Virus record (IMG/VR): IMGVR_UViG_2579778899_000005
Origin: a virus
Lineage: Duplodnaviria; Heunggongvirae; Uroviricota; Caudoviricetes
Length of the DNA: 19,870 nucleotides
Strand: one strand, 5' to 3'
Made by a program: the position numbers and the translations under genes. Below the pieces are notes generated by a model. It saw only the letters and a list, made by a program, of their open reading frames with translations, did no database searches and was not told the DNA's origin. Each line of letters begins with the position of its first letter. The first letter of the stretch is position 1. Positions 954 to 19,870 of this stretch are shown piece after piece.

Positions 954-985
954 AATGGCCTGGTATTTTCCAGGCCATTATTTTT
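954..985. terminator. Bidirectional rho-independent terminator between convergent genes
   Basis: Perfect 10 bp inverted repeat AATGGCCTGG (954-963) / CCAGGCCATT (970-979) with a 6 nt loop, followed by TTTTT 981-985 and preceded by an A-rich run on the other strand. Lies between the stops of the + gene (947) and the - gene (984). Confidence 0.65.
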
Positions 986-1457
986 AGAAGTCGATCTCTG
1001 TATCGCGATTAAATTCATCGCTAAGGTAAAGTGCTTCGCTTGGGCATTTTCCGTTTTCCAGTAATGTTTCCCAGAAATCTTTATCGAAACATCCCTCAAG
1101 ATACAGATAGCGGCAGATGTGAAGTAAATCACTTCGTGTCCATCCGTGCATGCTGCTACTTGTTACACCATATTCACTTTCTAGTTTATAGAATGTGAGC
1201 GCCTCCCGGTCGTGCCAGGCTTTGCACAGACGATCGTATATCTTTTTAGCTTTGTTTTTAGATGTGCCGAAAAACTCTTCGTAAATTTCATGTGGGCGAG
1301 TAGGAATACTTCCGTCGCCATCCTGCAAGAAAGGATAAACATCTGCCTCCCAGGCATACACGTAAGAATCGCTGAACTCATCATAGTGTTTACCAAGGTG
1401 GAGAATCTGCAATCGTTGCTGAATGAACATTGCTTTTTTCAGTTCATTTTCTGACAT
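984..1457 (-). CDS. Hypothetical protein (157 aa), AT-rich cargo or moron-like gene
   Basis: Minus-strand ATG (complement of 1455-1457) preceded by GGAGG (complement of 1466-1470) at 8 nt spacing. Visibly more AT-rich than flanking phage genes, with its own upstream region and a terminator. No recognisable domain. Confidence 0.6.
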   Translation of the reverse strand: MSENELKKAMFIQQRLQILHLGKHYDEFSDSYVYAWEADVYPFLQDGDGSIPTRPHEIYEEFFGTSKNKAKKIYDRLCKAWHDREALTFYKLESEYGVTSSSMHGWTRSDLLHICRYLYLEGCFDKDFWETLLENGKCPSEALYLSDEFNRDTEIDF

Positions 1458-1574: not shown

Positions 1575-1633
1575 TTTACATACTGATTTTTATGTATATG
1601 TTGGCGTGTGGCACTCAGACGTGAGCCGCCACA
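1575..1633 (+). promoter_or_regulatory. Candidate sigma70 promoter plus inverted-repeat operator or 5' hairpin upstream of the capsid operon
   Basis: TTTACA 1575-1580, 16 bp spacer, TATGTT 1597-1602, then inverted repeat TGTGGC (1607-1612) - N15 - GCCACA (1628-1633). Pattern-based only. Confidence 0.3.
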
Positions 1634-1648
1634 ATGCCGCCTGACCCC

Positions 1649-1683
1649 CTGCGCGATGCCGGGTTGATCTGCGAGATGCCGGG
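1649..1683 (+). repeat. Two 15 bp direct repeats CTGCG(C/A)GATGCCGGG spaced 20 bp apart
   Basis: Copies at 1649-1663 and 1669-1683 differ at one position. They sit about 70-100 bp upstream of the capsid start codon, suggesting a phased protein-binding site. Confidence 0.5.
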
Positions 1684-4723: not shown

Positions 4724-5015
4724 AGAAAAAATTACACCTGATGAAGTCAGGGCACATCTTCGCCTTGATGACTTTTCCGGAGAAGGCGAACTTCTGAAAA
4801 TGTATACCGATGCGGCGCTGGAAGCCTGCCAGAAGCACATCGGGAAACGTTTTGAAGACGGTCTGGAATTTACCCCGGCAATGCGTGTTGGTTGCCTGAT
4901 GTACATCGCTTTTCTGTATGAGAACAGGGAAGCGGTTTCACCTGTGGAGCAGTCGGAACTGCCTATGGCTATTTCTGCGCTCTGGTCAGTTTATCGTGAT
5001 GTGGGGGTGTATTGA
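4716..5015 (+). CDS. Head-tail connector, gp6-like
   Basis: ATG 4716 overlaps the portal stop (ATGAGTGA) with AGGTG upstream. 99 aa, similar in size and pattern to the gp6-like protein at 12997-13302. Confidence 0.7.
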   Translation: MSEEKITPDEVRAHLRLDDFSGEGELLKMYTDAALEACQKHIGKRFEDGLEFTPAMRVGCLMYIAFLYENREAVSPVEQSELPMAISALWSVYRDVGVY

Positions 5016-5455
5016 TGCCGTGGCAACCATTAAGGCGTTGTACTGAACCGGGCTGTAATAAGCGTGTGAAGTCAGGCAAGTGTGAAGAGCACAGGCGGGC
5101 TGCATGGCGTGCAGAGGATGCCAGACGGGGACACCGCCGCGCGCGTGGGTATTCCCGACAGTGGGACAAATACCGCGCCCTGTATCTGAGCAAAAACCCG
5201 TTATGCGTGCGTTGTCTGGCTAAAGGTATTTATACGCCAGCTCTTGTGGTGGATCACATCATTCCCATCAATGGCGGCGGTGATGTTCTCTTCTGGCCTG
5301 AGTGGAATCACCAGGCATTGTGCCAGACGTGCCACAACCGTAAGACGACACGGGAAGATCCAGCCACGAAAGCGAACCGTAAGGCGGGCATGTATCGCGA
5401 GCAGGAAGAACGGGCGGCACATCGTAACGACTGGATGTATGGCGATGATGACTGA
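5015..5455 (+). CDS. HNH endonuclease (terminase-associated)
   Basis: ATG 5015 overlaps the upstream stop (TGATG). Cys-rich N-terminus and HNH core (VDHIIPINGGGD...WNHQALCQTCHNRKT). HNH genes adjacent to terS/terL are typical of cos-type HK97-like packaging modules. Confidence 0.85.
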   Translation: MPWQPLRRCTEPGCNKRVKSGKCEEHRRAAWRAEDARRGHRRARGYSRQWDKYRALYLSKNPLCVRCLAKGIYTPALVVDHIIPINGGGDVLFWPEWNHQALCQTCHNRKTTREDPATKANRKAGMYREQEERAAHRNDWMYGDDD

Positions 5456-5624: not shown

Positions 5625-5743
5625 GGCCGTCAGAGGGGGTGGGGGAGGTTTTCAGGACAAAACCGTCCCTGCCGGACACCGACCGCCTCCTCAAATTTTT
5701 GTGCACGGGAATTTTTTTGAAAATAATTGGGCGAAAAAAGAAC

Positions 5744-6100
5744 ATGGCAAGACCACCAAAAGCCCCCGCTTACCTGGATGAAATTGCGGTCAGGCAATGG
5801 AAGGAAAAATCGCGCCAGCTTTCCGTGCGGGAAGACCTTACCCCCGCCGACTGGAGCAATCTGGAGCTGTATTGCGTTAACTACTCCATATACCGCAAAG
5901 CCGTCGAAGACCTTGCGACGCGCGGGTTCAGCATTGTTAACAGTCAGGGCAGCGAGAGCAGAAACCCCGCCCTGAGCGCAAAGGCTGACGCAGAAAGAAT
6001 AATGATCAAAATGGCTTCTTTGCTGGGTTTTGACCCGGTAAGCCGCCGCAGAAATCCACCGGAAACAGAGGAAGAGGACGAGCTTGACCGCCTGGCATGA
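5744..6100 (+). CDS. Terminase small subunit, P27-family-like
   Basis: 118 aa beginning MARPPKAPAYLDEIAVRQWKE..., with the size and N-terminal pattern of P27-family TerS. Positioned between HNH and TerL. No strong SD before ATG 5744. Confidence 0.75.
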   Translation: MARPPKAPAYLDEIAVRQWKEKSRQLSVREDLTPADWSNLELYCVNYSIYRKAVEDLATRGFSIVNSQGSESRNPALSAKADAERIMIKMASLLGFDPVSRRRNPPETEEEDELDRLA

Positions 6101-7745
6101 GTACGCAGAAGGCGTAAAAAACGGCAAAATTACGGCCTGTAAACGACTGAAACAGGCCGTTAAACGGTATTTTTCTGACCTTGAAAACCCCCTTTACACG
6201 TTCGATCCGGAGGTCGTGGAGCGGTTTATTGCCTTTTCCAGGGTGTGTCCGCACGTAAAAGGCGCAATGCGCGGTAGCCCCATTGAGCTGGAGCCGTGGC
6301 AGCAGTTCGCCTTTGCCTGCATCCTGGGCTTTAAGGTTAAGGCCACCGGACGGCGCAAATACACCAGCGCATTCATTGAAGTACCGCGAAAAAATGCCAA
6401 ATCCACGGTCGCCGCTATCCTGGCTAACTGGTTTCTGGTTATGGAAAACGGGCAGCAGGATATTTACACCGCCGCCGTGAGTCGTGATCAGGCGCGGATC
6501 GTGTTTGATGATGCGCGTCAGATGTGCCTTTTATCCCGACCGTTACGAAAGCGGGTAAATATTCAGGCACACAAGGTGATACACCCGAAAACCAACAGCC
6601 TGTTAAAGCCACTGGCAGCAAAAGCGGCAACCATTGAGGGGACAAACCCGAGTCTCGCCATTGTGGATGAATATCACCTGCACCCTGACAACGGGGTTTA
6701 TTCCGCGCTTGAACTGGGAATGGGGGCGCGTCCGGAGGGGTTATTATTTGCCATCACCACATCGGGGAGCAACGTTGTTTCAGCCTGTAAACAACACTAC
6801 GACTATTGCTGCCAGATACTGGATGGTGAAGAGGTGAACGAATCCATGTTCGTGCTTATTTACGAGCTGGATGATGAAAGCGAGGTTGACGATCCGGCGA
6901 TGTGGATAAAGGCGAATCCCAATATCGATGTTTCCGTCGATCGTGAAAAACTGGCCTCAACCATCCAGAAAGCGCGGGGTATTCCGTCGCAGTGGGTGGA
7001 AATGCTCACCAAGCGATTCAATATCTGGTGTCAGGGGGCTACGCCGTGGATGGGTAACGGTGCATGGGCGGAGTGCGCCGGAACGTTCGCGGAGGCGGAT
7101 TTATACGGGCAGGAGTGCTACGCGGGGCTGGACTTATCATCAACTAGCGATATTTCCAGCGTGTGCTATGCCTTTCCGGTCGGTAAAAAGATTATGCTGG
7201 TTTCCCGTCACTATCTGCCGGAATTTCAGCTACAGAACCCCGCCAATAAAAACCGCGCCATCTATCGCCAGTGGGTAAAGGCGGGCTGGATACGCACAAC
7301 ACCGGGTGACTGCATTGATTATGACCGTATCCGTGATGACATCATGGCGGATGCAGAGAATTTCAATATCAGGCTGGTGGGCTTCGATACATGGAACGCC
7401 ACGCACCTGAGGACGCAGCTACAGGGGGCAGGATTTGAGGTGGAGCCGTTCCCGCAAACATACCTTCGTTTCAGTCCGGCGGCGAAATCGTTCGAAGTTT
7501 TTGTTAACCGGAAGGTGATTGTGCATCGTGGCGATCCGGTGCTGGCCTGGTCAATGAGTAATGTTGTGATGCAGAGTGACGCGAACGCCAATATCAAGCC
7601 GAACAAGAAAAAATCATCCAACAAGATAGACCCGAGCGTTGCGGCGCTGATGGCGTTTGGCACATTCCAGGCAGAGCATGAGGAATTTGCATTTGATATG
7701 AGCGACAGCCACAAAGAGCGGCTTGCGGCGTTTGATGGGGTATGA
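6084..7745 (+). CDS. Terminase large subunit (ATPase plus nuclease domains)
   Basis: 553 aa. Start taken as TTG 6084 (AGAGGA 6073-6078 upstream), overlapping the terS end; start codon choice is uncertain. The C-terminal half aligns by eye with the truncated terminase fragment at 8737-9462. Confidence 0.9.
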   Translation: MTAWHEYAEGVKNGKITACKRLKQAVKRYFSDLENPLYTFDPEVVERFIAFSRVCPHVKGAMRGSPIELEPWQQFAFACILGFKVKATGRRKYTSAFIEVPRKNAKSTVAAILANWFLVMENGQQDIYTAAVSRDQARIVFDDARQMCLLSRPLRKRVNIQAHKVIHPKTNSLLKPLAAKAATIEGTNPSLAIVDEYHLHPDNGVYSALELGMGARPEGLLFAITTSGSNVVSACKQHYDYCCQILDGEEVNESMFVLIYELDDESEVDDPAMWIKANPNIDVSVDREKLASTIQKARGIPSQWVEMLTKRFNIWCQGATPWMGNGAWAECAGTFAEADLYGQECYAGLDLSSTSDISSVCYAFPVGKKIMLVSRHYLPEFQLQNPANKNRAIYRQWVKAGWIRTTPGDCIDYDRIRDDIMADAENFNIRLVGFDTWNATHLRTQLQGAGFEVEPFPQTYLRFSPAAKSFEVFVNRKVIVHRGDPVLAWSMSNVVMQSDANANIKPNKKKSSNKIDPSVAALMAFGTFQAEHEEFAFDMSDSHKERLAAFDGV

Positions 7746-8035
7746 CGAGAATGAGCGAAACCGAACTACTAAAAATAATCCGCCGCGTTACCGGAATCAG
7801 CCAGGAAGCAGGCAAACAGGAGGCCACGCAGCCGGACAGCGTGATAGCCGAAAATTACGCGCGTGTGGTGGCTGAGGTGATGCGCCGTGACGGTATCGAG
7901 CTTAACGGCGTGGATATACGCAATATACGCACCAGAGTTCTGGAGTTGTTGTCATATCGTCGCCGCGTGGAGATGTACCAGGAGAAAGAAAAAATTACTT
8001 ACCACTGGAAGAAGCCGGAGCGGTTACGACGTTAA
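7742..8035 (+). CDS. Hypothetical protein (94-97 aa), translationally coupled to terL
   Basis: ATG 7742 overlaps the terL stop (ATGA); alternative ATG at 7751. Stop TAA 8033-8035. No recognisable family. Immediately followed by a phased repeat array. Confidence 0.5.
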   Translation: MTRMSETELLKIIRRVTGISQEAGKQEATQPDSVIAENYARVVAEVMRRDGIELNGVDIRNIRTRVLELLSYRRRVEMYQEKEKITYHWKKPERLRR

Positions 8036-8041
8036 CTTGTG

Positions 8042-8090
8042 GTGACATACCGTGACGGAGAGTGACAACCAGTGACACACAGTGACAAAA
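8042..8090 (+). repeat. Five tandem GTGAC(A) motifs at exact 10 bp periodicity
   Basis: GTGAC at 8042, 8052, 8062, 8072 and 8082 (GGTGACATAC CGTGACGGAG AGTGACAACC AGTGACACAC AGTGACAAAA). One copy per helical turn, starting 7 nt after the stop of ORF 7742-8035. Confidence 0.75.
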
Positions 8091-8108
8091 AGACGGTATT
8101 TAAATAGA

Positions 8109-8137
8109 GTGGGTGTTTAATACCCCCCGTTTTTTTT
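8109..8137 (+). terminator. Possible weak terminator (short imperfect stem plus T8 run)
   Basis: GGGT (8111-8114) can pair with ACCC (8122-8125), followed by C-rich bases and TTTTTTTT 8130-8137. The stem is weak, so this is tentative. Confidence 0.35.
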
Positions 8138-8289
8138 CGTGTGGTGCATGGTCAAAATGACCACGGAGAAGATACGCACCGAAGCAGAACAATTACCGTA
8201 GGTTAAAGCGACAGTATTCACACCAGCAACCTGATTATCAATTTTCAGCCGTTCGGTGGCATCACTGGCCCCATTTTCCTGATGGGGTT

Positions 8290-8442
8290 GCGGGTTATTT
8301 GGGGGGTATTTGCGGGTTATTTTGAATGTCTCGCGGGTTACGCTTTGGCTAATATTCAAACGCATCATTTTTTAACGCATTGATATTAAAGAATAAAAAA
8401 TACTTAGCAAGCGAAGATAACCCGCTAACCCGCATAACCCGC
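8290..8442. repeat. Iteron-like repeat clusters: 3x GCGGGTTA(T) at ~22 bp spacing, an AT-rich core, then 3x inverted TAACCCGC in tandem
   Basis: Direct copies start at 8290, 8312 and 8333, with a degenerate GGGGGTATTT copy at 8301-8311. Reverse-complement copies at 8418-8425, 8426-8433 and 8435-8442. They flank a ~75 bp AT-rich segment (8343-8417). A 12 bp GTATATATATAC palindrome follows at 8451-8462. Confidence 0.75.
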
Positions 8443-8629
8443 ACTGTTTTGTATATATATACGAAAAATTGCATTCAGGGGGGTGATCGAAATTTCTACT
8501 GCCTCTTATCTCTTTGAGTGCTCACCTCGTCAGATTGTTACACACAAGAAATAAAAAATGCTTCGCGATGGTAGGTCGAATCACTGTATCAAAAAACGGT
8601 GTGTATCAGCATTAAAACAATACAGATAC

Positions 8630-8650
8630 GTGTATTGCGCTGTGTATTGC
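8630..8650 (+). repeat. Tandem GTGTATTGC repeat (2 copies, 12 bp apart)
   Basis: Copies at 8630-8638 and 8642-8650, with a related GTGTATC at 8601-8607, in AT-rich non-coding DNA. Confidence 0.6.
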
Positions 8651-8736
8651 TTGATGATTTATAAAGACTGTTTTTTCATGTTAAACGATTGATATACAGG
8701 TGATTTTAAAAAACTTGAAATATTCTTACCAAACAC

Positions 8737-9462
8737 ATGAATGTGTGGGTAACAGCAGAGTCTGCCTGGATGGACATGATTAAGTGGGAGAAGTGCGAAT
8801 ACATTGCCCCACGACATGAGCTGAAAACGTATCCCATGTGGGTCGGCGTTGACCTTGCTCATAAGATTGATATCTGTGCGGCGGCAAAACTCTGGCGAAC
8901 GGATAACGGGCATGTTCATGCCGATTTTAAATTCTGGCTTCCGGAAGGACGGCTGGAACGATGCTCGCGGCAGCAGGCAGAACTTTACCGGAAGTGGGCG
9001 GAGATGGATAAGCTGATTCTGACGGATGGTGATGTTATCGATCATGCTCAGATAAAAAGTGACTTACTGGAATGGATTGGTGGTGAAAACCTCAGGGAAC
9101 TGGGATTTGACCCGTGGAGCGCGATGCAGTTCAGCCTGGCACTGGCTGAAGAAGGGATACCGCTGGTGGAGGTTCCGCAGACGGTTCGCAATCTGTCAGA
9201 GGCCATGAAGGAAACGGAATCACTGGTCTATGCCGGGCGTTTCCATCACAGCAATCATCCGGTCATGAACTGGATGATGTCTAACGTTACGGTAAAACCG
9301 GACAAAAACGACAATATCTTCCCGAATAAATCCACGCTGGAAGCCAAAATCGACGGCCCTGTTGCGATGTTTACAGCAATGAGCCGGATGCTGGTCAATG
9401 GTGGTGAACCGGAGCTGGATCTGTCTGAACATCTGGTCAGCGTGGGCATCCGCTCGCTTTAA
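8737..9462 (+). pseudogene. Terminase large subunit remnant: C-terminal nuclease half only, N-terminal ATPase domain absent
   Basis: The 241 aa ORF aligns by eye with the C-terminal ~240 aa of the intact TerL at 6084-7745 (NVWVTAESAWM vs NIWCQGATPWM; VGVDLAHKID vs AGLDLSSTSD). An in-frame stop at 8716-8718 and a lack of SD upstream indicate truncation near 8720-8740. Confidence 0.7.
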
Positions 9463-9473
9463 CCGAGGTCATT

Positions 9474-9656
9474 ATGTTTCTGATAATTCTCGCGCCACTG
9501 GTGGGCGTGCTGGGTGCGCTTTTGCTGGCGTATGGTGCCTGGCTGATTTATCCCCCGGCGGGTTTTGTTGTTGCCGGGGTGCTGTGCCTGTTCTGGTCGT
9601 GGCTGGTGGCGCGATATCTCGACCGTACACAGCCGTCTGTCGGCGGAGGTAAATAG
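9474..9656 (+). CDS. Small hydrophobic protein (60 aa, two predicted transmembrane helices)
   Basis: ATG 9474 with GAGGT 9465-9469. Sequence is dominated by two hydrophobic stretches ([25 protein letters not shown] and [20 protein letters not shown]). Stop TAG 9654-9656 overlaps the portal GTG start. Confidence 0.45.
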
Positions 9657-10897
9657 TGTTCTTTTCGGGATTATTTCAACGAAAAAGTGACGCGCCGGTG
9701 ACCACACCAGCAGAGCTGGCGGATGCCATCGGGTTGTCTTACGACACCTATACCGGAAAGCAGATCAGCAGTCAGCGGGCCATGCGACTGACGGCGGTTT
9801 TTTCCTGCGTCAGAGTGCTGGCAGAGTCGGTCGGGATGTTGCCCTGCAATCTGTATCACCTGAACGGCAGCCTGAAACAGAGGGCCACCGGCGAACGTCT
9901 GCATAAGCTGATCTCCACGCATCCCAATGGCTATATGACGCCGCAGGAGTTCTGGGAGCTGGTGGTCACCTGTCTGTGCCTGAGGGGAAACTTTTACGCC
10001 TACAAAGTGAAAGCATTTGGCGAAGTGGCTGAACTGCTGCCCGTCGATCCCGGTTGTGTGGTACCGAAGCTTAACAGTCGCTGGGAGCCGGTCTATCAGG
10101 TCACATTCCCGGACGGTTCCACGGATGTACTGAGCCAGGAAGATATCTGGCATGTGCGCACGTTGACGCTGGACGGTCTGGTGGGACTGAATCCCATCGC
10201 CTATGCCCGCGAGGCAATATCGCTGGCAGCAGCGACCGAAGAGCACGGGGCCAGACTGTTCAGCAATGGTGCGGTGACGTCCGGTGTGTTGCGTACAGAA
10301 CAGACGCTGTCGGATCAGGCTTATGAGCGCCTGAAGAAAGATTTTGAGGAGCGTCACACCGGGCTTGGCAATGCTCACCGCCCGATGATCCTTGAGATGG
10401 GGCTGGACTGGAAGTCGATGGCGCTGAACGCCGAGGACAGCCAGTTCCTGGAAACCCGCAAGTTTCAGCTTGAAGAAATCTGTCGTCTGTTCCGGGTGCC
10501 GTTGCACATGGTGCAGAACACCGATCGCGCCACCTTCAACAATATCGAAGAGCTGGGGCTGGGATTTATCAACTATTCACTGGTGCCGTATCTGACCCGC
10601 ATCGAACAGCGGATCAACACCGGACTGGTACGAAAAAGTAAGCAGGGCGTTTATTACGCCAAATTTAACGCCGGGGCGTTACTGCGCGGGGATATGAAGT
10701 CCCGTTTTGAAGCCTACGCCACCGGGATCAACTGGGGAATTTACTCTCCCAATGACTGCCGCGACCTGGAAGATATGAATCCGCGTCCCGGTGGGGATGT
10801 CTATCTCACACCGATGAACATGACCACGAAACCCTCCGATGGCAGTAAAGCCGGTAAGCAGAAGGATAACGCCAATGCAGACGAAACAACGTCTTGA
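9656..10897 (+). CDS. Portal protein, HK97 family (second copy)
   Basis: GTG 9656 with GGAGG 9645-9649 at 6 nt spacing. 413 aa with portal pattern (RGNFYAYKV, LDWKSMALNAEDSQFLETRKFQLEEICRLFRVP), paralogous to the portal at 3509-4723. Confidence 0.9.
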   Translation: MFFSGLFQRKSDAPVTTPAELADAIGLSYDTYTGKQISSQRAMRLTAVFSCVRVLAESVGMLPCNLYHLNGSLKQRATGERLHKLISTHPNGYMTPQEFWELVVTCLCLRGNFYAYKVKAFGEVAELLPVDPGCVVPKLNSRWEPVYQVTFPDGSTDVLSQEDIWHVRTLTLDGLVGLNPIAYAREAISLAAATEEHGARLFSNGAVTSGVLRTEQTLSDQAYERLKKDFEERHTGLGNAHRPMILEMGLDWKSMALNAEDSQFLETRKFQLEEICRLFRVPLHMVQNTDRATFNNIEELGLGFINYSLVPYLTRIEQRINTGLVRKSKQGVYYAKFNAGALLRGDMKSRFEAYATGINWGIYSPNDCRDLEDMNPRPGGDVYLTPMNMTTKPSDGSKAGKQKDNANADETTS

Positions 10898-11539: not shown

Positions 11540-12745
11540 ATGGCGGTTGATATTAAAGATGTCGAACAGGTCGCGCAGGAGCTGCAGCAGAAGTTTGACG
11601 ACTTCAAAGCAAAGAACGACAAGCGCGTGGATGCGATTGAGCAGGAAAAAGGCAAACTTGCCGGGCAGGTGGAAACCCTGAACGGGAAACTCAGCGAGCT
11701 GGAAAACCTCAAAAGCGATCTTGAAAAAGAGCTGCTTGAGCTGAAACGTCCGGCAGGTGGTGCGCAAAATAAACTGGCCACCGAGCATAAAGAAGCGTTT
11801 GTGGGCTTCCTGCGTAAAGGCCGTGAAGATGGTCTGCGCGATCTGGAGCGCAAGGCATTACAGGTGGGCACCGATGAAGACGGCGGCTATGCCGTGCCGG
11901 AAGCACTGGATCGCAACATTCTCACCCTGCTGAAAGATGAAGTGGTGATGCGCCAGGAAGCCACGGTGATCACCGTTGGTGGTTCCGACTACAAAAAACT
12001 GGTGAATCTGGGCGGCACGGCTTCCGGATGGGTTGGCGAGACTGACGCGCGCTCCCAGACTGCCACCTCCAGACTGGGCCTGATTGAACCTTTCATGGGG
12101 GAAATCTACGGTAACCCGCAGGCCACCCAGAAAATGCTGGATGATGCCTTTTTCAACGTGGAAGCATGGATCAACAGCGAGCTGGCAACCGAATTTGCCG
12201 AACAGGAAGAAATTGCCTTTACCACCGGCGATGGTACCAAGAAGCCGAAAGGGTTCCTGGCGTATGAGTCCACGGATGAAACCGACAAGGTCCGGGCGTT
12301 CGGCAAACTTCAGCATATTGTATCCGGCGAAGCGACGGCGGTGACCGCAGATGCCATTATCAAACTGATTTACACGCTGCGAAAGGCACACCGCACTGGC
12401 GCGAAGTTCATGATGAACAACAACAGCCTGTTTGCCATCCGTCTGCTGAAAGACACCGAGGGTAACTATCTGTGGCGTCCGGGGCTGGAACTGGGGCAGC
12501 CGTCCTCTCTGGCGGGTTACGGTATCGCTGAAAACGAACAGATGCCGGATATTGCCGCTGATGCGAAAGCCATTGCATTTGGTAACTTCAAACGGGGTTA
12601 CACCATCGTTGACCGTATCGGTACCCGCATTCTGCGTGACCCGTACACCAATAAACCGTTTGTCGGTTTTTATACCACCAAGCGCACCGGCGGCATGCTG
12701 GTCGATTCGCAGGCCATCAAACTGCTGAAGATTGCAGCGGCGTAA
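11540..12745 (+). CDS. Major capsid protein, HK97 family with delta domain (second copy)
   Basis: ATG 11540 with AGGAG 11528-11532. 401 aa with N-terminal coiled coil and HK97-fold motifs (KGFLAYE, GNFKRGYTIVD, GGMLVDSQAIKLLKI). Paralogous to, but diverged from, the capsid at 1752-2897. Confidence 0.9.
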   Translation: MAVDIKDVEQVAQELQQKFDDFKAKNDKRVDAIEQEKGKLAGQVETLNGKLSELENLKSDLEKELLELKRPAGGAQNKLATEHKEAFVGFLRKGREDGLRDLERKALQVGTDEDGGYAVPEALDRNILTLLKDEVVMRQEATVITVGGSDYKKLVNLGGTASGWVGETDARSQTATSRLGLIEPFMGEIYGNPQATQKMLDDAFFNVEAWINSELATEFAEQEEIAFTTGDGTKKPKGFLAYESTDETDKVRAFGKLQHIVSGEATAVTADAIIKLIYTLRKAHRTGAKFMMNNNSLFAIRLLKDTEGNYLWRPGLELGQPSSLAGYGIAENEQMPDIAADAKAIAFGNFKRGYTIVDRIGTRILRDPYTNKPFVGFYTTKRTGGMLVDSQAIKLLKIAAA

Positions 12746-15927: not shown

Positions 15928-18900
15928 ATGAGTGTGGCGACATTACGTGAACTGATTATTAAAATCTCGGCAAATTCCCGGTCATTCCAGTCAGAGATCT
16001 CCCGGGCTTCGCGTATGGGGCAGGATTACTACCGTACCATGCAGAACGGAGGCCGGCAGTCCGCTGCTGCATCCCGTGAAATGCGGCGTGCACTGGCAGA
16101 AGTGACGGATCAGATAAATACAGCTAAATCTTCGGCACTGAATATGGCGGGGGCATTTGCCGGAGCTTTTGCTACCGGTCATCTTATTTCTCTCGCCGAT
16201 GAGTGGAATTCAGTAAATGCCCGCCTGAAGCAGGCTTCACAGTCCAGTGATGATTTTCAGGTATCACAACGTGAATTAATGGCAATCAGCCAGAGAACGG
16301 GAACGGCGTTTTCTGATAACGCCAGCCTTTTTGCCCGCTCTGCAGCTTCCATGCGGGAGTATGGCTACAGTTCTGAGGAGGTACTGAAAGTCACCGAGGC
16401 GATCTCCACGGGCCTGAAATTATCCGGTGCCAGTACAGCAGAAGCCAGTTCGGTGATCACGCAGTTCAGTCAGGCACTGGCGCAGGGAGTGCTGCGCGGT
16501 GAAGAATTTAACTCTGTGAATGAGAACGGCGATCGTGTTATTCGTGCGCTGGCTGCGGGAATGGGTGTTGCCCGTAAGGATCTGAAAGCCATGGCGGATA
16601 ACGGAAAACTGACCGCCGATAAGGTTGTTCCTGCACTGATTAGTCAGCTTGGGGCGTTGCGTGATGAATATGCAGCAATGCCTGATACTGTTTCATCCTC
16701 TGCAACCAAAGTTGAAAACGCCTTTATGGCCTGGGTTGGTGGTGCGAACGAGGCAAGCGGAGTGACAAAGACACTCACCGGGGTGTTGAATGGTGTTGCA
16801 GACAATATTGATACCGTGGCTGCTGCAGCTGGCGCACTGGTTGCCGTCGGGGTAGCCCGATATTTTGGCAATATGGCGTCGTCTGCTGGATCTGCAACTG
16901 CCGGATTAATTACTGCAGCCAGAAACGAAGTGGCTCTTGCTGAAGCGCAACTTCGGGGGACACAGATAGCAACCGCCAGGGCGCGTGCGGCGGTTTATCG
17001 TGCGCAACAGGCGGTTGTTGCTGCTCGCGGTACCGAAAGGCAGGCCGCAGCAGAAGCGAAGCTGACAGCTGCCCAGGCGTCACTTACCCGTAATATTGCG
17101 GCCAGAACAGCGGCACAGACAACGCTGAATACTGTCACGTCAGTGGGGAGTCGTCTGTTAAGTGGTGCGCTGGGGTTGGTTGGTGGTGTGCCGGGACTCG
17201 TCATGCTGGGGGCGACGGCCTGGTACACGATGTATCAGAATCAGGAGCAGGCCAGAGAATCTGCACGCCAGTATGCCGCAACAATCGACGAAATTCGCCA
17301 GAAAACGTCGGCAATGTTGCTTCCTGAAGCGTCAGATAATGAGGAAAAGACGCGGCAGGCACTTGATGAGCAAAACAGGTTAATTGACGAGCAGAAAAGT
17401 AAGATTAAATCCTTACAGGAAAAAATTGCTGGCTATCAGTATGTGCTGGCAAACCCGGGCTGGACAACCGATAACGGTTTTATGATTAACCACATGACGT
17501 CGGTAAAAACTGTCACAGAAGGGCTTGCAGAAGCAACAAATCAACTGGCAGTTGAACAGTCCCGTCTCACACAAATGCAGGGCAAAGCGCAATCCATTCA
17601 GGATGTGCTTGCCGGGCTGGAGGAGCGACGGGTGGCGTTGATCCGTCAACAGGCCGCGGAACAAAACAAAGCGTATCAGTCCCTGTTGATCATGAATGGG
17701 CAGCATACCGAGTTTAATCGCCTTCTCGGGCTCGGTAATGAATTACTTCAGCAGCGACAGGGGCTGGTGAATGTACCGTTACGGCTACCACAGGCAACCT
17801 TGGATGATAAACAGCAGACCGCACTGAATAACAGCGAGCGCGAACTGGCTCTGTCCCGCCTGAAGGGAGAAGCCCGTGAGCGTGCCCGCCTGGGTTATGC
17901 TGCGGATGATCTCGGCTTTGTGGGGGAGGCGTATCAGACAGCCAGACAGAATTATATCAATAACTCACTGGATGCCTGGCGAAATAACCAGGCAAATAAA
18001 CCCAAAGCGCATAAAAAGACCGAAGCGGAAAAAACAGAAGATATTTATAAACGGCTGATTAAACAGCAAAAAGAACAGATAGCACTGGCAGGGCAGAATA
18101 CTGAACTGGCTAAGATGAAATATCAGGTCAGTCAGGGCGAATTATCAACCCTGTCAGAAGCGCAGAAAAAAACGCTTTTGCAGAATGCAGCACTCATCGA
18201 CCAGAAAAAGATTCGTGAGCAGCTTGCCGCGTATGAAAGCAGTTTGGCGGACAGTAATGCCAGTGCCCGGGCATCTGACGACGCGCAGTTGCTGGGATAT
18301 GGTGAAGGCTCACGGATGCGTGAACGACTCCAGGAAATGTGGAGTATCCGGCATGAGTTTGAGCAGAAAAATAACGAGCTGCTGAGACAGTATCAGGCCG
18401 GAGAAATTGAAGAAGCCCTGTGGAAACAGGAGAAAGAACTGAATAAAAAATATCTGGAAGAGCGTCTCAGCGATCAGCAGGATTATTATGCAAAGGCCGA
18501 TGCTTTACGTAATAACTGGAATGCCGGACTCCAGGAGGGACTGACCAACTGGGCAGACAGTGCCACCGATTATGCTTCACAGGCGGCAGATGCTGTCGTT
18601 TCCACGATGGACGGGCTGGTATCAAATATTTCCGATGCACTGGCCGGGAATGTTGTGGACTGGAGGAACTGGGGTAGCTCAGTTCTCCGGGAAGTTTCAA
18701 AAATTCTGATGAATGCGGCCATTGTTAATGGACTGAAATCACTCTCTGGTGCCGGAGGGTGGCTTGGTACGGTCGGCGGATGGATTTCGGGGGCGGTGGC
18801 AAACGCAAAAGGTGGTGTTTACACATCGGCAAATCTGAGTGCTTACAGTAACACTATTGTGGATACACCGACGTATTTTGCTTTTGCGAAAGGTGCCGGG

Positions 18901-19161
18901 CTGATGGGCGAGGCCGGGCCTGAAGCCATCATGCCACTGACACGGGCAGCGGACGGCTCTCTTGGGGTCAGAGCCATTGGCAATGTGAATGGTGGCGGTG
19001 GATTTGTTTATTCTCCCGTGTATCACATCAGCATTCAGAATCAAGGGAGCAATGGCGAGATAGATGCGCGCTCAGCCAGGGGACTGGTGGATCTGATCGA
19101 CAGCAGGGTTGTGTCAATTATGCAGTCATCGCGTCGGGATGGAGGATTGTACAGTGCCTGA
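15928..19161 (+). CDS. Tail tape measure protein
   Basis: 1077 aa, Ala/Gln-rich with long predicted helical/coiled-coil stretches, located between the G/T chaperone and the M/L genes. Start is ATG 15928 (GGAG only 1 nt upstream) or GTG 15934 (7 nt spacing). Confidence 0.85.
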   Translation: MSVATLRELIIKISANSRSFQSEISRASRMGQDYYRTMQNGGRQSAAASREMRRALAEVTDQINTAKSSALNMAGAFAGAFATGHLISLADEWNSVNARLKQASQSSDDFQVSQRELMAISQRTGTAFSDNASLFARSAASMREYGYSSEEVLKVTEAISTGLKLSGASTAEASSVITQFSQALAQGVLRGEEFNSVNENGDRVIRALAAGMGVARKDLKAMADNGKLTADKVVPALISQLGALRDEYAAMPDTVSSSATKVENAFMAWVGGANEASGVTKTLTGVLNGVADNIDTVAAAAGALVAVGVARYFGNMASSAGSATAGLITAARNEVALAEAQLRGTQIATARARAAVYRAQQAVVAARGTERQAAAEAKLTAAQASLTRNIAARTAAQTTLNTVTSVGSRLLSGALGLVGGVPGLVMLGATAWYTMYQNQEQARESARQYAATIDEIRQKTSAMLLPEASDNEEKTRQALDEQNRLIDEQKSKIKSLQEKIAGYQYVLANPGWTTDNGFMINHMTSVKTVTEGLAEATNQLAVEQSRLTQMQGKAQSIQDVLAGLEERRVALIRQQAAEQNKAYQSLLIMNGQHTEFNRLLGLGNELLQQRQGLVNVPLRLPQATLDDKQQTALNNSERELALSRLKGEARERARLGYAADDLGFVGEAYQTARQNYINNSLDAWRNNQANKPKAHKKTEAEKTEDIYKRLIKQQKEQIALAGQNTELAKMKYQVSQGELSTLSEAQKKTLLQNAALIDQKKIREQLAAYESSLADSNASARASDDAQLLGYGEGSRMRERLQEMWSIRHEFEQKNNELLRQYQAGEIEEALWKQEKELNKKYLEERLSDQQDYYAKADALRNNWNAGLQEGLTNWADSATDYASQAADAVVSTMDGLVSNISDALAGNVVDWRNWGSSVLREVSKILMNAAIVNGLKSLSGAGGWLGTVGGWISGAVANAKGGVYTSANLSAYSNTIVDTPTYFAFAKGAGLMGEAGPEAIMPLTRAADGSLGVRAIGNVNGGGGFVYSPVYHISIQNQGSNGEIDARSARGLVDLIDSRVVSIMQSSRRDGGLYSA

Positions 19162-19495: not shown

Positions 19496-19870
19496 TGCAG
19501 GATATACAACAGGAAACACTGAATGAGTGTACAAAAGCGGAGCAATCCGCACTGGTCGTGCTCTGGGAAGTCGATCTGACCGAAGTCGGTGGCGAGCGTT
19601 ATTTTTTCTGTAATGAGCAGAACGAAAAAGGTGAGTCAGTCACCTGGCAGGGGCGACAGTATCAGGCGTACCCTATTCAGGGAAGCGGCTTTGAGATGAA
19701 CGGCAAAGGAGCCAGTGCAAGACCAACGCTGAAAGTCTCTAACCTGCACGGCATGGTCACCGGGATGGCGGAAGACCTGCAAAGTCTGGTCGGCGGAACG
19801 GTGGTCAGGCGTAAGGTTTACGCCCGTTTTCTGGATGCGGTGAACTTCGTCAACGGAAACAGTGACGCCG
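19495..19870 (+). CDS. L: Minor tail protein, lambda L-like (N-terminal 125 aa; runs off the window)
   Basis: ATG 19495 overlaps the M stop (TGATG). Translation MQDIQQETLNECTKAEQSALVVLWEVDLTEVGGERYFFCNEQNEKGE... is near-identical to the lambda gpL N-terminus as recalled. Confidence 0.85.
   Translation, partial: MQDIQQETLNECTKAEQSALVVLWEVDLTEVGGERYFFCNEQNEKGESVTWQGRQYQAYPIQGSGFEMNGKGASARPTLKVSNLHGMVTGMAEDLQSLVGGTVVRRKVYARFLDAVNFVNGNSDA

Follow-up and report, generated by a model that had tools for sequence, protein, structure and literature searches.

The stretch analyzed here is a piece of viral DNA of 19,870 nucleotides (nt) (IMG/VR record IMGVR_UViG_2579778899_000005; "the window" denotes this stretch at its full length). 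According to Pfam matches of its genes, the window carries on its plus strand a capsid-forming phage-inducible chromosomal island (cf-PICI) of Escherichia coli, i.e. a phage satellite. cf-PICIs are a recently recognised, widespread class of satellites which build their own capsids and borrow only tails. Positions 1575 to 1751, located within the 294-nt gap (1458-1751) ahead of the operon that runs from the capsid gene to the gene of the large terminase subunit (TerL), probably comprise a sigma70-type promoter and a structured 5' leader RNA of about 145 nt which acts in cis as RNA. This leader would control the stability and/or the translation of the operon mRNA. Coordinates refer to the window and features lie on the plus strand unless stated otherwise.

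A sequence-only reading of the window had assigned this region to the control of a satellite head and packaging operon and had interpreted its repeats as DNA sites to which an activator or repressor would bind, coupled to induction of the helper phage. The assignment as operon control region with a promoter was confirmed, the interpretation of the repeats was not. New here are the location of the operon promoter, a conserved, modular leader RNA of 145 nt, and a separate DNA element at a fixed position upstream. A keyword search of the available text of two cf-PICI preprints (10.1101/2022.09.08.507074; 10.1101/2025.02.11.637232) gave no mention of an operon promoter or a leader. Promoter and leader bear on the question why cf-PICIs make capsids even when no inducing phage is present.

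The promoter of the capsid operon

The three motifs on which the sequence-only reading was built are all present. A promoter-like site consists of the hexamers TTTACA (1575-1580) and TATGTT (1597-1602) separated by 16 nt and agrees with the consensus at 9 of 12 positions. The inverted repeat is formed by TGTGGC (1607-1612) and GCCACA (1628-1633) with 15 nt between the arms; the direct repeats CTGCGCGATGCCGGG (1649-1663) and CTGCGAGATGCCGGG (1669-1683) are identical at 14 of 15 positions with a start-to-start distance of 20. Perfect 6-nt inverted repeats with loops of 3-20 nt were observed three times as compared to about one expected (p ~0.1, not significant). A direct repeat of 14/15 is improbable by chance (p ~0.001).

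Capsid-upstream regions were gathered from more than 250 loci in IMG/VR contigs, one GTDB genome (Rosenbergiella), phage-labelled GenBank records listing Klebsiella and Salmonella as hosts, and complete E. coli genomes. The scan for capsid relatives was alignment-based and returned only relatives of at least 70% identity. For analysis of the promoter, an alignment of 99 distinct promoter-proximal sequences was anchored at the base with which a 25-nt block, termed P1, begins. The bases TTT of the -35 hexamer (-33 to -31 relative to P1) are kept in 96-98 of the 99 sequences. The -10 hexamer has the family consensus TAT.TT with T1, A2 and T6 invariant (99/99), T3 found in 93/99 and T5 in 95/99. 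The base located 6 nt after the -10 hexamer is always a purine (G in 93 sequences, A in 6), and most of the spacer is variable.

As in sigma70 promoters, the hexamers resemble TTGACA and TATAAT, their spacing falls into the range of 16-18 bp, the key bases are conserved, and a purine start follows 6-8 nt downstream. Hexamers and inverted repeat are conserved in register in every relative with this leader, and 1575-1602 is the only promoter-like site on the plus strand ahead of the operon. The genes upstream end, in many relatives, with a terminator (a GC-rich hairpin with a T-run) that lies immediately next to the promoter; hence, the operon needs a promoter of its own. Conservation across the 99 distinct relatives strongly supports the view, already taken in the sequence-only reading, that 1575-1602 is a sigma70-type promoter, here that of the capsid-to-TerL operon.

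The probable start of transcription is G1608, with which P1 begins and which follows the -10 hexamer by 6 nt; this predicted position is uncertain by a few nt. With such a start both the inverted and the direct repeats would be transcribed. A constitutively active sigma70 promoter would fit the finding, reported in the available text of a preprint (10.1101/2025.02.11.637232), that cf-PICIs make packaged capsids without an inducing phage. A second inverted repeat, located in the promoter spacer (TACATA-N8-TATGTA, 1577-1596), was discarded as it is not conserved in other types of the leader.

Predicted structure of the leader RNA

Elements carrying the leader have three essentially invariant parts in common, namely the promoter-proximal sequence, the 25-nt block GTGGCACTCAGACGTGAGCCGCCAC (1608-1632) and the block TGGTTTCACGTC (1710-1721). 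The 60-80 nt between these two blocks, which include the direct repeats, exist in 72 distinct sequences with many unrelated versions. Independent single-sequence folds of 23 and then of 85 distinct leaders gave the same three-hairpin arrangement of P1, P2, a C-rich linker and P3; RNAalifold recovered P1, P2 and P3 as well, and fold z-scores were -2.2 and -4.5. A covariance model built from 14 sequences identified exactly one full-length copy in each of 100 sources. In the alignment of these 100 sequences 97.0% of the cells form standard pairs as compared to 35-52% when the partners are slid by 1-3 columns. The number of cells changed on both sides was 237 versus 66 +/- 8 in shuffles, and none of 500 shuffles reached 237. 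Region 1608-1751 was thus shown by sequence comparison to encode a putative structured leader RNA of about 145 nt with hairpins P1, P2 and P3.

The 5'-terminal hairpin P1 (1608-1632; GUGGC-A-CUCA-GACG-UGAG-CC-GCCAC) folds in every sequence, occurs once per element, and contains as its outer stem the inverted repeat described above (1607-1633). Its inner 23 nt are invariant in nearly all elements, the exceptions being a loop changed from GACG to GGCG in locus L220 and a G.U second pair in L072. The closing pair (G1608-C1632) is G-C in 93, A-U in five and G-U in one sequence; the five sequences with A-U were found via the capsid protein and not via P1.

The long hairpin P2 (1636-1696, helix 96% paired) has a basal stem of GCCGCCUGAC (1636-1645) and GUCGGGCGGC (1687-1696), and its 3' arm contains the lambda-cos-like sequence GGGCGGCG. 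At least 10 unrelated versions of the basal stem were found, all of them self-complementary, with G.U wobbles; apart from that of the window these include GGCCGUUAAGUC/GAUUUAACGGCC, GUCCACCUGG/CCAGGUGGAC, GAUCCCCCGG/CCGGGGGAUC and GCCCGCCCC/GGGGCGGGC. Eight of the nine basal pairs show compensatory changes. The hybrid type E combines the 3' P2 arm of the window with the 5' arm GCCGUCCGAU, and all three differences preserve pairing (G.U or C-G). In total, at least 38 cells of P2 hold G.U or U.G pairs. On the other strand such wobbles are A.C mismatches, meaningless for a site in duplex DNA, which points to an RNA or single-strand feature of the plus strand. The segment with the repeats has been swapped for unrelated sequence in relatives while the hairpin was kept by compensatory and G.U-compatible changes, which argues for RNA structure and not for a protein-binding DNA sequence.

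The pyrimidine-rich and C-rich linker GCUCCCUCCGUGU (1697-1709) is found in all types, with CUCCCCUCC, UACCCCUUCC and AUCCCUCC as other versions. Its 5' part is unpaired in all folds, and positions 1705-1709 start the 5' arm of P3 (1705-1740; CGUGUUGGUU/AACCAAUACG; helix 95% paired). P3 has an invariant core with two covarying pairs; its 5' strand contains the near-invariant UGGUUUCACGUC (1710-1721), which forms invariant alignment columns. In other types P3 reads UGGUUUC-CGU/ACG-GAAACCA. The distance from the end of P3 to the start codon is 5-11 nt. The position of the leader on the coding strand between promoter and capsid ATG is fixed, and the capsid gene itself (1752-2897) lacks a good Shine-Dalgarno sequence.

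A search of the whole window with the Rfam 15 covariance models gave no match at E<=1, and a literature search retrieved no paper with the P1 sequence and none relevant for the P3-strand sequence. A leader peptide was also considered, as a 32-codon open reading frame (ORF) starts at ATG 1634 in type A, and was discarded since this ATG is missing in other types. Judged by its predicted structure and position, the leader is a so far undescribed representative of a known class of elements, the structured 5' leaders of phage-type operons.

The direct repeats as predicted apical hairpins of P2

In type B, the commonest version outside E. coli, P2 branches at its apex, through a three-way junction, into two small hairpins, P2a (GCUGC-GCGAA-GUAGC) and P2b (CUGC-GAGAU-GCAG). 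Among 22 distinct type-B apices, 206 of 207 stem cells are paired and 43 of 44 loops read GNGAN. Covariants of P2a are GCUGUA/UACAGC, GCUGAA/UUCGGC and GCUAC/GUAGC, those of P2b CUGC/GCAG, CUGA/UCAG and CGGA/UCCG. The direct repeats of the window are the type-A counterparts of these hairpins: copy 1 (1649-1663; CUGC-GCGAU-GCCG) corresponds to P2a and copy 2 (1669-1683; CUGC-GAGAU-GCCG) to P2b, each with one U.C mismatch. Copy 2 is only one base away from the type-B hairpin (12/13 identical).

The direct repeats are confined to type A, which is one close lineage, and to the hybrid type E. Most type-A members have CCGAG instead of CCGGG in copy 2, which lowers the repeat to 13/15, and the few positions that are polymorphic in type A are located in the repeats. 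For the majority variant of type A the twin-hairpin fold lies 1.7 kcal/mol above the minimum free energy (MFE) structure. Comparison with type B shows that the direct repeats correspond to a lineage-specific, duplication-like version of the predicted twin GNGAN-loop hairpins and not to conserved DNA sites. A linkage of P2 type to protein alleles was considered and proved uninformative, type A being one near-clonal lineage (portal 98-100% identical).

Possible DNA-binding sites around the promoter

According to the sequence-only reading, the inverted repeat (1607-1633) and the direct repeats (1649-1683) would be operator or activator sites in double-stranded DNA that couple the head and packaging genes to helper induction. 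The motifs do exist, the direct repeat beyond chance expectation, and P1 is an imperfect palindrome whose invariance across elements would suit an operator overlapping +1. The symmetric change of its outer pair from G..C to A..T would also fit a dimer site, and a gene for a PerC-family activator is located 1 kb upstream. However, all repeats lie downstream of the conserved promoter, P1 begins at the predicted +1, and its halves are asymmetric with a 1-nt versus a 2-nt bulge. The direct repeats are limited to types A and E and polymorphic inside; what other lineages keep at this place is only self-complementarity, G.U pairs included. The PerC-family gene is present in only part of the type-A elements, and the whole module is missing in many related elements (39/61). 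No site of the Ogr/Delta, LexA, CRP, IHF or boxA type was found in 1458-1751; in particular, neither TGT-N12-ACA near -55 nor the LexA box CTGT-N8-ACAG is present on either strand. Taking both sides together, we regard DNA sites at these repeats as very unlikely.

In other satellites, late promoters are under the control of DNA-binding activators or repressors, as exemplified by P4 Psid with P2 Ogr or P4 Delta and by SaPI operon I with LexA. The promoter studied here likewise serves capsid and packaging functions of a satellite; it differs from these examples by the absence of both motifs and by the location of the noted repeats within the transcript. Coupling to helper induction was not borne out; packaged cf-PICI capsids are made without an inducing phage, as stated in the available part of the preprint cited above (10.1101/2025.02.11.637232).

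Regulation by DNA binding is more likely to occur further upstream, at 1519-1557, outside the interval considered by the sequence-only reading. The conserved box TTTTGTAAATTATTTGT (1519-1533, with TGTAAA at 1522-1527), centred near -83, is a candidate promoter element or activator site and exists as a single copy in the window. Of 125 distinct upstream regions, 116 have TGTAAA at a distance of 86-87 nt ahead of P1, and in six others this distance is 97-98 nt. The spacing is held although the DNA in between is unrelated (some elements have a terminator hairpin there, the window has TTGTTC repeats), and homology with other E. coli elements begins near the box, at about 1505-1509. The three TTGTTC repeats (1532-1557; starts at 1532, 1542 and 1552, i.e. 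with 10-bp phasing) lie between the box and the -35 hexamer and are candidate activator-binding repeats of type A; of 11 copies on both strands of the 19.9-kb window, three occur within these 26 bp. A motif (T/C)GTT(C/T) recurs at the same position in other promoters without a terminator hairpin. No known motif matching 1519-1557 was found.

Possible functions of the leader

The 5' untranslated region of E. coli ompA has a length of 133 nt and consists of a hairpin at the extreme 5' end, a second hairpin and a single-stranded segment with the ribosome-binding site (RBS). The 5'-terminal hairpin without a single-stranded tail protects the mRNA from decay that depends on the 5' end. The cf-PICI leader is similar to ompA in length, in having a hairpin that begins no more than a few nt from the predicted +1 and more hairpins before the RBS, and in heading the mRNA of a very abundant structural protein. 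The two are unrelated in sequence, and P1 shows no variation in its sequence, its loop or its bulges, a degree of conservation not required of a hairpin with a generic protective role. By analogy with ompA, P1, which lies right at the 5' end with no unpaired tail, would shield the long mRNA of the operon from such decay.

P3 would pair the near-invariant UGGUUUCACGU with the weak ribosome-binding region of the capsid gene, which has no good Shine-Dalgarno sequence, and would thereby set the rate of translation. In phage Mu com/mom, an operator sequestering the RBS is opened by binding of a factor to an upstream hairpin. The leader resembles this system by its start-proximal hairpin pairing with the ribosome-binding region, by a conserved hairpin upstream and by a potential alternative pairing of P1 with the P3 strand; it differs in that no Com-like zinc-finger protein was found and that its switch is hypothetical, with both partners invariant.

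The alternative pairing involves the loop and 3' side of P1 (GACGUGA), which are complementary to UCACGUC in the P3 5' strand UGGUUUCACGUC. The calculated energy of this duplex is -13.2 to -14.4 kcal/mol as compared to -11.4 kcal/mol for P1 alone, the complementarity exceeds that of shuffles (p 0.01-0.03), and the single P1 loop variant (A to G, L220) would keep the pairing as G.U. Since both partners are invariant, covariation provides no test of such a switch. Invariance and mutual complementarity of P1 and UGGUUUCACGUC may, speculatively, reflect recognition by a conserved factor or a switch between P1 and P3. Taken further, this idea makes P1-P2-P3 an undescribed, cf-PICI-specific class of leaders with two states: either P1 and P3 are both closed, or P1 is paired to the P3 5' strand and the start region is freed. 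A conserved factor of the host, the helper or the satellite would decide between the states, and specificity would be conferred by the P2 apex, which varies between lineages and has twin GNGAN loops in types A and B. If so, production of the satellite capsid would be gated after the start of transcription and independently of late activators of the helper. We put this forward tentatively as a possible but rather improbable extension of the cis-acting leader.

Several observations weigh against a promoter with a cis-acting structured leader, or restrict what it may do. As a stand-alone pattern the promoter match is at chance level, with one found as compared to 0.8 expected in shuffles. The 100-sequence alignment was fitted to the model; the independent single-sequence folds agree with it. 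Pairing in P1 rests on one covarying pair, with the rest almost invariant. This invariance would also fit a DNA operator, and a role purely as a stabiliser does not explain it. P3 of type A leaves the AUG and about 10 nt upstream of it unpaired, and occlusion of the ribosome-binding region would therefore be partial. In the window's own variant the twin-hairpin fold lies 8.6 kcal/mol above the MFE structure, and formation of the twin hairpins in this variant is uncertain. Finally, among 61 additional elements with capsids about 72% identical to that of the window, 39 lack P1-P2-P3; the module is therefore dispensable for capsid expression as such.

The leader could also act during transcription. 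As an antitermination or anti-attenuation RNA it would either bind RNA polymerase, similar to put, or recruit an N-like protein, similar to nut/boxB, and thereby allow read-through of the operon of about 6.3 kb. The put sites of phage HK022 are polymerase-utilisation antiterminator RNAs with two stem-loops just after the promoter (PMC9378689), and HK022-type phages are among those interacting with cf-PICIs according to the available preprint text (10.1101/2025.02.11.637232). P1 and P2 have the putL-like layout of two stem-loops directly after the predicted +1 of a long phage-type operon, both being cis-acting RNAs, and the invariance of P1 would be in keeping with its recognition by RNA polymerase or another conserved machine of the host. 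The leader shares no sequence or structure similarity with put: a search of the whole HK022 genome with the leader model, with filters switched off, gave 6.1 bits (E=1.7) as the best hit, P1 and P2 together cover about 90 nt as compared to about 70 nt for put, and a third hairpin is located at the RBS. Convincing intrinsic terminators were not found inside the operon, where weak pattern matches numbered 17 versus 10 +/- 3.7 expected.

Lambda nut sites consist of boxA and a boxB hairpin with a GNRA-like pentaloop that is bound by N. Similarly, the leader is promoter-proximal and, in types A and B, has short predicted hairpins with a conserved purine-rich GNGAN pentaloop on covarying stems. It differs by the lack of a boxA, no CGCUCUUA-like sequence being found within two mismatches in 1458-1751, and by a loop consensus other than GAAAA, GAAGA or GACAA. 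The boxB-like hairpins sit on top of a longer stem, the apex of P2 being wholly different between lineages, and are missing from types C and D; those of the window, with their U.C mismatches, are not part of the MFE structure. No N-like protein was identified; the Arg-rich tail encoded by the small ORF at 660-947 is not conserved outside type A. A sister class of leaders (L247, L267) does have a terminator-like hairpin followed by a T7 run. The Rfam search of the window gave no match, as stated above. On balance, antitermination is an unlikely function of the leader.

Satellite P4 cuts its CI RNA from its own leader. By this precedent the leader, or P1-P2 only, might be processed into a stable small RNA acting in trans on the helper phage or the element itself, in view of the stable hairpins at the 5' end of a satellite transcript and with the invariant P1 as a possible seed or processing signal. 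Neither a terminator nor a recognisable processing site follows P2, Rfam models for C4, IsrK or CI RNA did not match, and the window holds no second copy of P1 and no complementary target even at three mismatches. The only sizeable complement of P1 lies in cis, 80 nt downstream. A trans-acting RNA therefore appears highly improbable.

Three-hairpin initiation signals for replication of single-stranded DNA exist, and the region could be such a signal or a cos site, with GGGCGGCGCTCC (1690-1701) as cohesive end and the repeats as cosB-like sites for the small terminase subunit (TerS). By eye, 9 of the 12 bases of GGGCGGCGCTCC match the lambda cohesive end GGGCGGCGACCT, and repeats beside a G-rich motif recall the arrangement of cosB and cosN. 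However, GGGCGGCG is the 3' arm of P2 and missing from types B, C and D, and the module is always located between promoter and start codon. Moreover, the linear record of a related element, vB_KppS-Ant (LR881103), ends directly after GGGGTGGGGGAGGTTTTCAGGAC, in the gap between the HNH endonuclease and terS genes (window position ~5658), 4 kb away. This block (GGGGGTGGGGGAGGTTTTCAGGAC; window 5635-5658, between HNH/small ORF and TerS) is conserved in all cf-PICI lineages examined, and it resembles a G-run close to the right cos end of HK022. The cos site of the element is likely to be located at 5635-5658, and we see next to no chance for a cos site or replication signal in the leader region.

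Distribution of the leader and other leader classes

Of 5,426 complete E. coli genomes, 153-166 (about 3%) contain the leader, for instance that of strain SMS-3-5 with a type-A element (NC_010498, 963583-963762), and more than 120 viral contigs have it as well. Each element carries a single copy, which invariably precedes a capsid gene directly. It is also present in elements from Klebsiella and Salmonella sources and in a Rosenbergiella genome, the latter being the only useful locus from the scan of genome contigs. In most elements devoid of the module the leader is short and AT-rich; in a few it is long and of a different kind, offering alternative pairings and including a terminator-like hairpin. 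The upstream TGTAAA box and a ATTTTTCATG block are common to all leader classes. As far as these comparisons allow a judgement, the leader is an exchangeable regulatory cassette.

In type-A relatives (L037-L057) the protease, portal and HNH genes are 96-100% identical, and only the capsid gene varies, with 68-100% identity. The breakpoint of capsid-gene recombination in type A is located at or just 3' of the leader.

The different long leader forms a third class, found at four loci (L247, L264, L265 and L267; 200 nt upstream of the capsid start) and unrelated in sequence to the others. It has two mutually exclusive pairings (CATGTAGGT/ACCTACATG versus CTGCATG/CATGCAG), a good GAGG Shine-Dalgarno sequence and a hairpin containing GCGGTAG, which is reminiscent of ops; in L247 and L267 this hairpin precedes the T7 run mentioned above. 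From its sequence this class looks like an attenuator.

In the short-leader class (L210-L262, ~60 nt) the promoter sequence CATGGTGTT is the reverse complement of AACACCATG at the start codon, with the compensatory variants CATAGTGTT/AACACTATG in L212 and CATGGCGTT/AACGCCATG in L221. If this pairing occurs in RNA, transcription would have to start further upstream than the homologous -10 hexamer suggests.

The element and its genomic context

The element is a capsid-forming PICI by its gene set of capsid, protease, portal, connector, HNH endonuclease, TerS and TerL, in agreement with its designation as a satellite in the sequence-only reading. The criteria for the family were taken from the available text of 10.1101/2022.09.08.507074, and the element matches this published definition: an island of about 15 kb with int, a regulator pair, a primase and the capsid-to-TerL set, and no tail or lysis genes. 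Strain TUM9757 harbors the same element (99.8% identical) as an island of ~15 kb with integrase, regulators and primase, inserted between cspD/yljB and clpS.

The first gene of the operon encodes the major capsid protein of the HK97 fold family (1752-2897; Pfam Phage_capsid, 1.5e-60; so annotated by RefSeq in relatives). It is followed by an HK97-type prohead protease (up to 3507), the portal (up to 4723), the head-tail connector, the HNH endonuclease (5012-5455), TerS of the P27 family (~5744-6100) and TerL (6084-7745). Upstream of the promoter, the window starts with a fragment of a single-stranded DNA-binding protein gene (8-355), followed by the PerC-family transcriptional activator gene (359-649; Pfam 1e-35), located ~1 kb upstream of the capsid promoter, and by the small ORF at 660-947, which belongs to phrog_1957, a family of unknown function.

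A divergent ORF of 157 amino acids (984-1457, minus strand) lies between the phrog_1957 ORF and the capsid promoter; no family match was found for it. It is seen in only some type-A elements, and in others a terminator directly follows phrog_1957. The phrog_1957 ORF is located directly upstream of the late promoter in 135 of 201 loci with P1-P2-P3 versus 0 of 25 short-leader loci. It has diverged between leader types (26-48% identity), and its Arg-rich C-terminal tail WKIRRRMRDPVKR exists only in type A. A role as dedicated partner of the leader was discarded, as the ORF is not universal, the association is confounded by phylogeny and the Arg-rich tail is not conserved. The ORF could still encode a regulator, with the same reservation concerning its association with the leader.

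The cf-PICI is followed (7745-9700, and on to the end of the window at 19870) by a prophage remnant in the same orientation, which begins inside terL. Its ORF 8737-9462 encodes only the C-terminal nuclease domain. Then follow ymfR, a portal (9656-10897), a protease, a second HK97-type capsid gene (11540-12745), connectors, tail genes and the tape-measure gene (15928-19161). The junction thus connects the head module of a satellite with a head-and-tail module of a phage in which a working terminase is missing. The same junction is present in PEC240 and four other complete E. coli genomes; in TUM9757 the PICI stands alone between cspD and clpS. Another unusual arrangement was found in the almost unannotated 106.5-kb record of "Klebsiella phage P12620-1" (PQ569648.1; L003), which carries a cf-PICI-type capsid module with a type-C leader in its last ~5 kb. 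This module may be an assembly join or a co-packaged satellite.

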